Shown piece by piece: positions 230-15,029 of a stretch of DNA of 64,000 nt. Numbering within the stretch: the first letter of the stretch is position 1; each line of letters begins with the position of its first letter. A program made the translations under genes and the position numbers. Below the pieces are notes generated by a model. It searched no databases. It saw nothing but the letters and a program-made list of their open reading frames with translations, and had not been told where the DNA came from. The DNA comes from Minisyncoccota bacterium (GTDB lineage: Bacteria; Patescibacteriota; Minisyncoccia; Phycocordibacterales; UBA918), in assembly GCA_041389025.1 (NCBI GenBank), contig JAWKSP010000001.1, positions 478,663 to 542,662 on the forward strand. Reading direction: 5' to 3'.

Positions 230-2212
230 ATGGAACCAGATAATAATCAACAAGATGTTTCAAATGATGCTGATGTTTTAACTAAGCCGATAACTACACC
301 AATTGCCTCACTTACCTTAGGGCTTATAACGGCTTTAGTTTTAACCACCACCTTAAATGGTTTTGTATCCTTAAAATACACTATTAACCAGTTAGCTTCT
401 CAACAAAATAGCTATGCAGCGATATCGTCGGTGGCTAAAAATAAAGTCAAAGATAATAATTCTGTCGTTAATTTAGAATCAGAGGAAACTAATAGAGTAA
501 TTGTTAAATTTAAAGACGATGCTAAATTACCACCTGGTTTGTCAGTGGCGGCCGAAAAAGCTAATTTAGAAAAGGCTCAAGGACTAAATCATGTCTTAAC
601 TATCAATGGTATTGAAGCTCAAGTTTATGAAATATCAGAAGATGATACTGCCACTGAGGTAGTGCAGAGACTCTTGGCTAAACATAAGGATGTGATCGAG
701 TACGCTGAAGTGGATATGTTGGTAGCGCCAAGTCTGGTGCCAAATGACCCTTATTATCCAAACGCTTGGCATTTACCAAAAATAGAAGCACCGGCTGCTT
801 GGGATAGTATTCAGGGTGCTAGCGTAACAGTAGCAATTCTAGATAGTGGAGCCGATCCTAATCACCCAGATTTAAATTTTGCGCCAAATGTTGGTTGGGA
901 TTTTTATTACGGTAACTCAGATTGGAGTGATGTTTATGGACATGGGACAATTGTGTCTGGAGCAGCAGTGGCTACTATGGATAATTTAGCTGGTGTAGCT
1001 GGTGTAGCCGGAAAAGCATTATTAATGCCAGTACAAGTAGCTAATGATAACGATGGTTATGCTTTTTGGAGTTCTATGACCAGCGGTATAATTTATGCTG
1101 CTGATAATGGAGCTAGGGTTGTTAACCTCAGTTTTCAAGCCTGTGATTCAAACGCTCTCTCTGACGCTGCTGGGTACATGCGCGATAGAGGTGGGGTGGT
1201 GTTGGTGGCGGCTGGCAACACCGGAACAGAATTAACTTATCCGGTTTCCACCAATATAACCTGTGTATCAGCTACCGGTTCTGGTGATACGCGTCCTAGT
1301 TGGTCTAGTTATGGAAATTATGTTGATGTAGCGGCACCTGGGGTTGGTATTTACACTACTGTTAAAGGTGGTGGATATGGTGGAGCTAGCGGTACTTCAC
1401 TATCAACTCCGGTTGTCTCCGGCGTATACGCATTAATGTTTAGTGCCAACCCTTCTCTAACTGCAGCTGAAGCTGATGCTATATTATTCCAAACCGCTCT
1501 TGATATTGGTTCTGCTGGTTGGGATATGTACTATGGTCATGGACGTGTTAATGCTTTCGCTGCAGTGCAAGCCGCTTTAAATATGCAAGGTTCTCAAGAT
1601 ACAGAAGCGCCGACTACTCCTGCAAATCTAAATGCAGACAACGTCACTGATAGGTCAGTTACTTTAAATTGGCTTAATTCTACCGACAATGTGTTGGTAA
1701 CTGGGTATAATGTTTACCGCGATGGGGAAAAGATTACTACTACTTCAAATACCAACTACACAGATGTTTCATTGAGTTCAAATTCAACATATGTTTACGA
1801 AGTTTCAGCGATCGATAAAGCCGGTAATGAATCAGCTCGAAGTGCTTCTGTTTCCGTTAATACTCTAGATGTTGCTTTTGATATAGCTGGTTATTCAGTA
1901 ATAAGTAAAAGTAATAGTGATGCCACAATTGGTGTTGATTTAACTAAGTTAGGTACTGTTACTGTTAGATACGGTACTAATAGTGGTAACTTAGATCTGT
2001 CAGTTGATAGTTCTGAGCTTAATACTAATCACTCCCTTAACTTAACCGGTCTTTCTTCTCGTACTACTTATTATTATCAAGTGATAGCTGTTGATCAATC
2101 TGGAGCTACCGTATCTTCTTCTGTATCCAGCTTCAAAACACCTAAAGGTGGAGGTGGTAGCGGAGGTGGCGGTAATAGTGGAAAGGGTAACGGAAAGCCT
2201 AGCAACCGCTAA
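230..2212 (+). CDS. Membrane-anchored subtilisin-like serine protease (peptidase S8) with C-terminal fibronectin-III-like repeats and a Gly-rich tail
   Basis: Asp/His/Ser triad motifs (VAILDSGAD, HGTIVSGAA, GTSLSTPVVSG). N-terminal hydrophobic anchor. C-terminal repeated beta-rich segments (TLNWLNSTDNVLVTGYNVYRDG...) and a GGGGSGGGGNSGKGNGK tail. Confidence 0.8.
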   Translation: MEPDNNQQDVSNDADVLTKPITTPIASLTLGLITALVLTTTLNGFVSLKYTINQLASQQNSYAAISSVAKNKVKDNNSVVNLESEETNRVIVKFKDDAKLPPGLSVAAEKANLEKAQGLNHVLTINGIEAQVYEISEDDTATEVVQRLLAKHKDVIEYAEVDMLVAPSLVPNDPYYPNAWHLPKIEAPAAWDSIQGASVTVAILDSGADPNHPDLNFAPNVGWDFYYGNSDWSDVYGHGTIVSGAAVATMDNLAGVAGVAGKALLMPVQVANDNDGYAFWSSMTSGIIYAADNGARVVNLSFQACDSNALSDAAGYMRDRGGVVLVAAGNTGTELTYPVSTNITCVSATGSGDTRPSWSSYGNYVDVAAPGVGIYTTVKGGGYGGASGTSLSTPVVSGVYALMFSANPSLTAAEADAILFQTALDIGSAGWDMYYGHGRVNAFAAVQAALNMQGSQDTEAPTTPANLNADNVTDRSVTLNWLNSTDNVLVTGYNVYRDGEKITTTSNTNYTDVSLSSNSTYVYEVSAIDKAGNESARSASVSVNTLDVAFDIAGYSVISKSNSDATIGVDLTKLGTVTVRYGTNSGNLDLSVDSSELNTNHSLNLTGLSSRTTYYYQVIAVDQSGATVSSSVSSFKTPKGGGGSGGGGNSGKGNGKPSNR

Positions 2213-2240
2213 TTATTTCAGATACACAAATAACATAAAA

Positions 2241-2266
2241 CACAAAAGTCCTGTAGGACTTTTGTG
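2241..2266 (+). terminator. Rho-independent terminator of the S8 protease gene
   Basis: Perfect hairpin cacaaaagtcc-tgt-aggacttttgtg followed by a T-run. Confidence 0.6.
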
Positions 2267-2289
2267 TTTTATGTGTTATAATAATAAAA

Positions 2290-2836
2290 GTGTGGTGGTT
2301 GCCCAGCCCTACTTTTTTCAATTACAATTATTTTAATAGTAATTGAAAAAAGTAGAGCTGGGAGGAAAGTCCGAACACGTCCCAGCTCTACTTTTTGTTG
2401 TTATTTATCATTCGTTACCATTTTTTGATTAATTGGTTATGTAATTGATGAGATAATTGAAAAAAGTAGGGCTGGGAGCAGAGTAGCGGGTAATTCCCGT
2501 CGCTAAGCCGTACTTTTGTAAATTTTAATTTGCATGCAAATTAAAATTTACAAAAATGGCACAAGGCTAGAGGTGCGAGCAGAGACGTCGGAAGCTAAAG
2601 CGAACGAATTCCTTATGGGAATAGCTTGAGTAGTAATACTTAAGGTGAAACGGCAAAATCCTTACTTGCGTGCAAGGCCGTGCCCAACCTCACTTTTTTA
2701 TTTTTATTGAATTTTAATAAAAATAAAAAAGTGAGGTTGGGAGAGCCGCTAGAGGTAAATGGTAACATTTATCCCAGAAATATAACCATCCTGATTATTT
2801 AATATATTCAGACAGAATTCGGCTTATACACTAAGT
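2290..2836 (+). ncRNA. rnpB: RNase P RNA (bacterial type A-like) carrying three long perfect hairpin expansions
   Basis: Universal RNase P motifs occur in the correct order and spacing. GGAGGAAAGTCCGAAC (P4 5' strand, 2361-2376). TAGGGCTGGGAGCAGAGTAGCGGGTAATTCCCG (P5-P7-like). AAGGTGAAACGGC (J11/12-P12 GGGUGAAA-like, 2642-2654). GCTAGAGGTAAATGGTAAC...CAGACAGAATTCGGCTTAT (P18/P4 3' strand, 2809-2826). Ends are approximate. Confidence 0.65.
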
Positions 2837-14774: not shown

Positions 14775-14850
14775 GCTTGGGTAGCTCAGTTGGTAGAGCG
14801 CTTCCCTGAAGAGGAAGATGTCGTCGGTTCGAGCCCGACCCCAAGCACCA
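14775..14850 (+). tRNA. tRNA-Phe (anticodon GAA)
   Basis: GCTTGGGTAGCTCAGTTGGTAGAGCGCTTCCCTGAAGAGGAAGATGTCGTCGGTTCGAGCCCGACCCCAAGCACCA. Canonical cloverleaf with encoded CCA. Confidence 0.88.
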
Positions 14851-14899
14851 GTATATAAAATGCCTCCACATGGAGGTGTTTTATATACTGGTGCTTGGG
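14840..14899. repeat. 21-bp perfect inverted repeat containing the tRNA-Phe 3' end, flanking a GC hairpin (probable terminator)
   Basis: cccaagcaccagtatataaaa ... (gcctccacatggaggt) ... ttttatatactggtgcttggg. Confidence 0.55.
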
Positions 14900-15029
14900 A
14901 AGAAAGGTGTTAATACACCTTTCGTTCGGGCTCGCACCACAAGAGTATTTCCATTTTTATACTTCTTTCAGTCGTTAAAAATTAGGTCAAAAGCGCAGTC
15001 ATGTCGCACGGAGCGGAGCGAGTACGACA

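Follow-up and report, generated by a model that had tools for sequence, protein, structure and literature searches.

RNase P RNA, a universal ribozyme, is a standard marker of genome completeness. Here we analyse the RNase P RNA gene (rnpB) of a Minisyncoccota bacterium, located in a 64,000-nucleotide stretch of contig JAWKSP010000001.1 (assembly GCA_041389025.1, positions 478,663 to 542,662 of the forward strand; hereafter the window, whose numbering is used throughout), in which four peripheral helices end in long hairpins of a family that we call clamp-hairpins after their G+C-rich base. In 23S and 16S rRNA, intervening sequences are long, near-perfect hairpins that replace the loops of conserved helices; they occur sporadically, are removed by RNase III, combine a conserved basal stem with a variable tip, and have copies shared between sites. 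Examples in 23S rRNA lie in helices 25 and 45. The P12 helix of cyanobacterial RNase P RNA is said to contain short tandemly repeated repetitive (STRR) sequences, reportedly described by Vioque in 1997. For RNase P RNAs of the candidate phyla radiation (CPR), Lui et al. 2021 (PMC8172020) described scores below the model thresholds and “large extensions of helices” (e.g. an extended P15) that made manual refolding necessary, as well as a UGG/CCA-binding motif that is often missing (23 of 35 CPR RNAs are without UGG). The gene family is known, and divergent, extended members of it have been noted in CPR bacteria before (PMC8172020).

The window RNA resembles these CPR RNAs in its sub-threshold score, its helix extensions and its missing UGG motif, but that study describes no repeated clamp-hairpin module, no occupancy of up to six helix tips, no restriction to rnpB and no duplication of arms that compete for the fold; neither did we find a repeated homologous module of this kind, its restriction to rnpB, its presence at up to six tips or a fold arising from arm duplication in the literature searched. 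Like rRNA intervening sequences, the window inserts are near-perfect stems that sporadically take the place of conserved helix loops; they differ in that the host gene is rnpB, that excision is hypothetical here and that up to six sites are used within one small RNA. With the cyanobacterial STRR they share the presence of repetitive DNA in a peripheral rnpB helix, tolerated by the ribozyme. The STRR, however, are short tandem heptamers abundant throughout the genome, whereas the inserts are non-tandem hairpin modules that were not found outside rnpB in the regions searched.

Compared with class A RNase P RNA (RF00010), all conserved blocks follow in the same order, and two relatives pass the gathering score of the model. 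The likeness comprises the P4 sequences (GGAAAGUCCG... paired with ACAGAAnnCGGCUUA, plus the bulged U), P1-P3, P5, the P7-P11 cruciform, P12 and P15, and extends to the P13, P14 and P18 by which class A is recognized. The window RNA differs in a P1 of only 4-5 bp and in four helices with long inserts. It also lacks the CCA-pairing GGU in the L15 internal loop, whose strands read GUG and AGA within a P15 that encloses P16 on both sides. Throughout the clade, a plain P16 hairpin and an additional small hairpin between P5 and P7 replace the P6/P16/P17 pseudoknot; no P6/P17 pseudoknot with P16 was seen when the alignment was read, no dedicated pseudoknot search having been made. The additional hairpin occupies the position of P5.1 in class B (Bacillus-type) RNAs, which likewise have no P6/P16/P17-type pairing, but the likeness is positional only: P13 and P14 are present and covary, and P10.1 and P15.1 were not identified in the window RNA. 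We interpret the locus as an ordinary RNase P ribozyme with tolerated expansion modules on its peripheral hairpins, which are kept paired and are shuffled between helix tips by recombination, and we assign this reading a probability of roughly 0.65.

Clamp-hairpins at the helix tips of rnpB

The gene occupies 2290-2831 on the forward strand, from the 5' strand of P1 through its 3' strand, and is class-A-derived and of the Paceibacteria (CPR) type. Relatives, designated by L numbers, were collected as 80 loci found with LepA in metagenome-assembled genomes (MAGs) of Patescibacteria (Paceibacteria/Parcubacteria) at 59-85% identity. When the region is searched alone, the model RNaseP_bact_a (RF00010) matches 2441-2842 with 58.4 bits (E = 3.7e-17), an alignment that omits the true 5' part of the gene. 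Because this score falls below the gathering score of 100, the default Rfam scan of the window misses the gene and reports only two tRNAs. Among the relatives scanned, L002 and L031 alone reach the gathering score (about 109 bits each), while the rnpB genes of L001, L003, L004, L011 and L061 also stay below it. As L001 and L004 are free of inserts, the class A model is generally marginal for Paceibacteria, independently of the inserts. A permissive Rfam scan also returned microRNA and small-RNA matches, which lay far below their own gathering scores and were rejected as generic long-hairpin resemblance.

The identity of the gene and the helix map rest on an alignment of 40 rnpB sequences (the window and 39 relatives), which stays in register through all conserved blocks and for which the core structure was specified by hand. 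In this alignment 89.8% of cells pair, compared with 77.2% in shuffles, and both sides change at 46 pairs, a number reached in none of 500 shuffles; in a control in which the 3' partners were slid, pairing falls to 35-49%. Covariation supports P1, P2, P4, P5, the base of the hairpin at the P5.1 position, P13, P14, P15 and P19. The low value for P18 in this test (40.9% paired) is attributed to a structure string without the bulged U and is not evidence against P18. The alignment in register and the covariation of the core establish that the gene is real and the helix map sound. As judged from its sequence, the locus is a genuine, functional-type RNase P RNA gene of a Paceibacteria (CPR) bacterium, the product of which would catalyse the 5' maturation of pre-tRNAs. 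The first part of the original prediction, that this is a real rnpB, is thereby upheld by the RF00010 match, the conserved synteny and the covariation alike.

Its attribution of the extra gene length to helix-tip hairpins holds as well, for at these tips the closest relatives (L001, L004, L082-L084) form only short hairpins, closed by GNRA or UUCG loops. When segment lengths are measured between conserved anchors in 59 rnpB genes, the window exceeds the clade median at P3 (61 vs 23 nt), P5.1 (102 vs 22 nt), P9 (68 vs 13 nt) and P16 (59 vs 41 nt); the P18 segment is constant at 17 nt in all but two loci. The P3 clamp-hairpin (2302-2362, forward strand like all features below, 61 nt) consists of the clamp CCCAGCCCUAC followed by U6/A6. 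Its 29-nt arms are 93% complementary, so the stem is present where it had been predicted but is not perfect, being interrupted by C·A (2308:2356) and A·A (2326:2338) mismatches; its minimum free energy (MFE) is -33.2 kcal/mol (z = -11.8). The 98-nt P5.1-like hairpin between P5 and P7 (2380-2477) is a full-length copy of the module, with the clamp (U)CCCAGCUCUAC, a U/A run, an inner GUUAUUUAU... stem and a variable apex. Its 17-nt outer arms (2380-2396 and 2461-2477) are 94% complementary with a single U·G pair (2387:2470), its MFE is -39.5 kcal/mol (z = -9.1), and its base covaries in relatives at 3 of 3 pairs.

P9 (2507-2560, 54 nt, z = -5.5) retains the native base GCCGU/AUGGC and holds a perfect, spacer-less 42-nt palindrome centred between GCA and UGC; this palindrome had been noted before, one nucleotide downstream of its actual position at 2514-2555 (as 2515-2556). 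In compact relatives P9 has only about 5 bp and a GCAA, GAAA or GUAA loop. The hairpin at P16 (2683-2741) starts with the clamp CCCAACCUCAC and U6 and folds with 28 bp and a 3-nt loop rather than with the 26 bp proposed for it (MFE -36.2 kcal/mol, z = -11.9). Overall, the coordinates given earlier were right to within 1-2 nt. Relatives have CUCA-GUAA-UGAG or CCCA-GCAA-UGGG as their native P16. The outermost bases of the P16 clamp, CCCA/UGGG, are therefore already present as the helix base of compact relatives, which means that the module replaces the loop. The copies in P3, P9 and P16 are shortened, nearly perfect palindromes. Six matches to the arm motif lie within the window rnpB; the remainder of the 64 kb gives four weak matches with 3 mismatches each, which corresponds to chance (shuffle mean 1.26, largest 5), and no further copy of the module was found outside rnpB in the window.

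Related long hairpins occur sporadically at P3, P5.1, P9, P13/14, P16 and P19 in about 25 genomes and have related basal arms. The module is made up of a G+C-rich clamp of about 9-11 bp (of the CCCAGCCCYRC type in the window and the CCGAGCACC type elsewhere), a U-run/A-run, often an inner AUUUAU/AUAAAU stem, and an unconstrained apex. Two arm families can be distinguished: CCCAGCCC[YR]CUUUU...AAAAG[YR]GGGCUGGG in the window, L003, L025, L029, L049, L052 and L061, and CCGAGCACCUUCU...AGAAGGUGCUCGG in L009, L011, L024, L045 and L061. Full-length copies measure about 100 nt (95-106 nt), and in an alignment of 14 of them the clamps, the U-run and the inner stem are conserved and the middle is variable. 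The most heavily occupied gene is that of L011 (L011:4929-5646, about 720 nt), with long hairpins at six sites (P3, P5.1, P9, P14, P16 and P19), five of which are near-identical CCGAGCACCUUCUGUAG... copies of about 80 nt belonging to two subtypes. L003 has almost the same interior in P3 and in P9, and P19 carries a long module in L011, L061, L029, L049 and L052. The more distant L070 and L071 have a different family of inserts at the tips of P3, P16 and P19, with arms such as GGUCGUACCUCAUUGCA... and GCAUCACAUUGCAUGUGAUGC..., which is duplicated within a gene (P3 and P16 of L071) and common to both genomes (P16 of L070 and P19 of L071). The gain of helix-tip hairpins is therefore not limited to one module.

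In the regions searched, the modules are restricted to rnpB. The window and 1.35 Mb of related loci contain 23 clamp hairpins within rnpB and two elsewhere, each of these two being the 3' end of a tRNA-Phe gene; 16-mers of the arms with at most 2 mismatches have 125 matches inside rnpB and 2 in the 442 kb outside. These searches covered flanking regions rather than whole genomes, and rRNA, tmRNA and signal recognition particle RNA genes lay beyond them. The near-absence of copies outside rnpB argues against an ordinary dispersed mobile element, and the earlier suggestion that the palindromes might be mobile hairpins with copies elsewhere finds no support in the regions searched.

Pairing of the inserts is shaped on the transcribed RNA strand and not only as a DNA palindrome, as follows from the excess of G·U over A·C oppositions (58 vs 17 in 54 long stems, symmetric scoring, p = 2e-6). 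Compensatory changes between copies of the clamp (CA/UG, UG/CA and UA/UA) are seen in L003. The GC content of insert interiors tracks that of the locus (Spearman rho = 0.69, p = 0.001), which the core does not (rho = 0.24), and the window has the lowest values for both (locus 36.8%, inserts 16%). The AT-richness of the inserts is simply the outcome of genome bias on interiors that are unconstrained and have long been resident. In a neighbour-joining (NJ) tree of LepA, the window falls into the clade (L003,(window,(L002,(L001,L004)))). Long hairpins are present at the same four helices in L003 and the window, at P16 only in L002, and nowhere in L001, a distribution that fits ancestral presence with later loss and repeated gain alike. 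Of the two origins considered at the outset, recent insertion is not borne out, given that L003 is long at the same four helices and that the interiors have drifted to host composition; lineage-specific helix expansion describes the hairpins better, with the addition that they form a family of related inserts.

Helix map and genomic setting

The catalytic core is intact and comprises P1, P2, the P4 pseudoknot, P5, P7-P11, P12-P15, P18 and P19. P1 (2290-2293/2828-2831) and P2 (2294-2300/2784-2790) covary at 4 of 4 and 7 of 7 pairs, respectively. In P4 (2367-2375/2818-2825; 5' strand AAGUCCGAA, bulged U2370), six pairs are invariant and two covary (AU↔GC in 14 sequences; n = 40), and P5 (CACG, 2376-2379, with CGUG, 2669-2672) exchanges GC for AU in 15 sequences. 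P7 (2481-2486/2662-2667) was read by hand, and P8 (2487-2499) contains the core motif CGGGUAAUUCCCG. The RF00010 alignment and that of the relatives place a short, unexpanded P12 at 2589-2606; P13 (2608-2622) and P14 (2625-2644, GUAA loop) are likewise unexpanded, and both covary. P18 (2754-2774) has a constant length in the clade. The P19 hairpin (2791-2811), situated between the 3' strands of P2 and P4, is short here, and its base covaries at 4 of 4 pairs. Three further core motifs are read from the sequence: GGAGGAAAGUCCG (2361-2373), GGUGAAACGGC (2644-2654) and ACAGAAUUCGGCUUAU (2812-2827). The core motifs listed in the original prediction are present, but two of its assignments need correction: UAGGGCUGGG belongs to the second inserted hairpin as its 3' arm and is not part of P5-P7, and AAGGUGAAACGGC follows P14, according to RF00010 and the alignment of relatives, and does not belong to J12/13.

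Upstream of the gene, a putative extended -10 promoter box (TGTTATAAT, 2274-2282) ends 7-8 nt before the first base of P1, and a TGnTAnAAT-type box is found at the same distance from P1 in L003, L009, L010 and L011. Directly after P1 follows a terminator-like hairpin (2832-2865) with perfect 15-nt arms (CUCCC-GUCA-GGGAG and then UUUUU), an equivalent of which follows rnpB in relatives. Both signals are proposed from the sequence and from this conservation; a promoter/terminator consensus scan called neither the box, as the scan requires a -35 hexamer, nor the terminator, whose U-run lies within the extended stem. Between the subtilase gene and rnpB there is, in addition, a perfect 20-bp inverted repeat with a 2-nt gap (2233-2274), which has the form of a bidirectional terminator-like hairpin and was called by the scan on the minus strand.

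The flanking genes encode a subtilase, a TPR protein, MurJ and LepA. The order rnpB-TPR-MurJ-LepA is kept in about 65 of the 80 loci, with rnpB about 4.5 kb upstream of lepA. An 81-amino-acid open reading frame with a TTG start (2091-2336, forward strand), which begins at the end of the subtilase gene and extends as far as P3 in rnpB, is almost certainly spurious, as are similar small frames called over rnpB in relatives (e.g. L082 747-995 and L084 1358-1537). The adjacent TPR protein has a single match in a metagenome scan (32% identity), and in a large protein collection, which includes the window protein itself, its next relative is 50% identical. Six contigs of the nearest TPR homologues were inspected (L082-L087): L082-L084 hold a compact rnpB, the contigs of L085-L087 end inside or at rnpB, and in none of the six are P3 and P5.1 modules found together. 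Contig starts fall inside the long P16 hairpin in L085, inside P7 in L086 and inside P18 in L087; the L083 contig ends just upstream of its complete compact rnpB, and several relatives' contigs stop 150-400 nt upstream of the TPR gene. This suggests that internal repeats and palindromes break short-read assemblies and add to the RNase P RNAs reported “missing” from MAGs.

A further palindrome is associated with the tRNA-Phe gene of the window (14775-14850, within 14775-14940). The gene ends with ...CCCAAGCACCA, directly after which come, in this order, a terminator-like hairpin and UGGUGCUUGGG; the latter is exactly the reverse complement of the 3' end of the tRNA. Together these parts make up a palindromic hairpin, perfect over about 30 bp, in which the 3' strand of the acceptor stem and the CCA take part. 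A degenerate tRNA-like piece (GCUUGGG...GUUCGGGCUCGCACCA) lies downstream of it. In the related loci, an inverted copy of the tRNA 3' end is found downstream of 9 of 47 tRNA-Phe genes and of none of 57 tRNA-Arg genes. The inverted copy may serve in termination or in processing of the 3' end, or may be what is left of an integration site.

Alternative pairing of the P3 and P5.1 arms

The four homologous arms of P3 and P5.1 can also pair crosswise (2302-2476), and the complementarity claimed for this arrangement is indeed perfect: 2302-2324 pairs with 2454-2476 over 23 nt and 2347-2363 with 2380-2396 over 17 nt, both at 100%. The latter pairing encloses the 5' strand of P4 and P5 in a loop, as foreseen, though of 16 nt rather than 18 nt, and the crossed fold keeps P4 and P5 from forming properly. 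For the segment 2301-2478 alone, the crossed fold (-79.9 kcal/mol) is favoured by 3.9 kcal/mol over two local hairpins (-76.0 kcal/mol), and the MFE structure of the whole gene, which is blind to pseudoknots, also chooses it. The duplex energies of P4 and P5 (-8.1 and -6.2 kcal/mol) amount together to about -14.3 kcal/mol and outweigh this advantage, so that the native fold should be preferred.

Could the two arrangements constitute a switch, in which the arms toggle between local hairpins (active) and a crossed fold that locks the 5' strand of P4 and P5 (inactive) and thereby gates assembly? The crossed advantage of 3.9 kcal/mol in the isolated segment, the MFE structure of the whole gene and the perfect crossed pairing (23 + 17 bp), set beside local hairpins that contain a C·A mismatch and a U·G pair, would speak for it, as would the two differences between the arm copies, which complement each other in a way that resembles covariation. 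The pattern is not conserved in relatives, however. In L003 the arms of P3 (CCCCAC/GUGGGG) and P5.1 (CCCUGC/GCAGGG) differ by compensatory changes that favour the local hairpins, and a crossed fold would be mismatched. L011 also has matching arm pairs and a mismatched crossed fold, the MFE structures of both are local, and L003, L011, L061 and L029 all fold as two local hairpins; most relatives lack any long P3 or P5.1 hairpin. Moreover, the stability of P4 and P5 exceeds the crossed advantage, P3 is transcribed and able to fold before the competing arm exists, and no close relative is available in which the resemblance to covariation could be followed, the next TPR homologue being only 50% identical. 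At one variable position the four arms fall into two “alleles”, and the two inverted arms that adjoin each other (2347-2363 and 2380-2396) have the same one. A single mutation and subsequent hairpin-templated correction or gene conversion between these arms, which lie 16 nt apart, would yield this pattern without any function. The gating of P4 by alternative pairing, as raised in the original prediction, thus appears very improbable. In our view the crossed pairing results incidentally from the homology of the arms and may act as a misfolding trap but is not a conserved switch, and the inserts are probably tolerated decoration.

Origin and fate of the inserts

According to the explanation that we prefer, the short capped tips of P3, the P5.1-like hairpin, P9 and P16 would have been replaced by copies of the clade-wide module, which would point outward from the periphery, away from the active site. 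Selection on the RNA would keep the modules base-paired, while their interiors, as those of old residents, would drift with genome composition. Copying and homogenization between tips of the same gene could take place at the homologous arms on the DNA level, through recombination or template switching, and such events could also produce perfect spacer-less palindromes as in P9 and complementary neighbouring arms as at 2347-2363 and 2380-2396. Several points weigh against this explanation. We infer the copying between tips and assume that the inserts are retained in the mature RNA, and the simple NJ tree of LepA cannot separate ancestral presence with loss from repeated gain. The P16 clamp of L002 resembles that of the distant L061, which may result from transfer or from ancient polymorphism. 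Tolerated decoration in its pure form does not explain why clamp sequences are conserved between genomes that are saturated at neutral sites, and a function or a shared mechanism is hinted at; confinement to one gene is, in addition, unusual for passive expansion. Finally, at P5.1, P9 and P16 long hairpins stand in place of GNRA tetraloops, which should carry a cost in stability if these loops matter. In class A RNAs, L9 normally docks on P1.

Alternatively, the long hairpins might be intervening sequences that RNase III excises, after which the mature RNA would consist of as many as five fragments joined through the G+C-rich clamps and the core helices. The basal stems are near-perfect duplexes of about 18-30 bp in most copies. 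Such a length, about two helical turns, corresponds to the size of RNase III substrates, and rRNA genes of CPR bacteria reportedly carry insertions that are absent from the mature rRNA (attributed to Brown and co-workers, 2015). The hairpins also substitute for the terminal loops of conserved helices, sporadically among close relatives, a conserved G+C clamp beneath an A/U-rich run is what the holding of fragments would need, and the G·U excess indicates that the duplex matters as RNA. Every one of these features, however, is equally expected of expansion segments that are retained, and no fragmented bacterial RNase P RNA was found in the literature searched. A tblastn search with an E. coli rnc query gave no match in the window and related loci, which is uninformative as these cover about 10% of the genome. 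On balance we consider excision rather unlikely; it stays under consideration because passive tolerance leaves clamp conservation and the confinement to rnpB partly unexplained. A more specific form of the idea, held with slightly greater doubt, would make the clamp-hairpins undescribed, rnpB-specific intervening elements of about 100 nt that propagate between tips, and possibly between genomes, and are cut at the A/U-rich stem to leave a clamp-held, multi-fragment ribozyme.

The conserved terminal inverted repeats with variable interiors, the discrete size of full-length copies (about 95-106 nt), the several near-identical copies in one gene (L011, L003), the patchy occurrence across the tree and the contigs of several relatives that end inside or at rnpB could all be accounted for if copies of a miniature inverted-repeat or REP-like transposable element had landed in the gene. 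Such elements would be expected as many dispersed, mostly intergenic copies, but nothing of the kind was seen in the window or the 1.35 Mb of loci, where only the two tRNA-Phe look-alikes and the two 16-mer matches with 2 mismatches lie outside rnpB. No transposase is associated with the inserts. They do have arms in inverted repeat, but the bases that flank these, CC../..GG or CCCA/UGGG, belong to the native base of the helix and do not evidently represent a target-site duplication. The tracking of host GC by insert GC points to long residence, and the asymmetry between G·U and A·C to selection on RNA rather than on DNA only; a general mobile element is therefore improbable. Least probable of all, and rejected here, is mimicry of a tRNA, in which the clamp would imitate an acceptor stem with CCA, as in permuted tmRNA genes, and the inserts would be recognized or cut by RNase P or 3' enzymes. 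Some clamps do read CCAGC-A-CCA-C (L012, L021, L013), and in the regions searched the sole clamp-like hairpins elsewhere than in rnpB consist of a tRNA-Phe 3' end and, after it, the reverse complement of that end. The clamps nevertheless differ from the host tRNA-Phe (e.g. CCGAGCACC clamps in L009 and L061, as opposed to CCCAAGC followed by ACAA in tRNA-Phe), and most tRNA genes of the clade do not encode CCA. A helix that continues perfectly past the would-be cleavage site is also unfavourable for RNase P.

For genome surveys, the default Rfam search misses rnpB in this CPR clade, partly through the inserts, so that genomes can seem to lack RNase P RNA. With a module at up to six tips, in which clamps are conserved and interiors drift, and with no copy elsewhere in the DNA examined, the family offers an unusual and tractable case for the gain and loss of expansion segments in structured RNAs, and the inserts provide natural data on which peripheral tetraloop contacts (L9, L16, P5.1) are dispensable. 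The window rnpB is, furthermore, a natural example of homologous arms that create a competing four-arm fold around a P4 strand and should be useful for studies of RNA folding. If the long hairpins were excised, the phenomenon of rRNA intervening sequences would extend to RNase P, and excised clamp-hairpins would give the first naturally fragmented bacterial RNase P RNA, a counterpart of the rRNA case.

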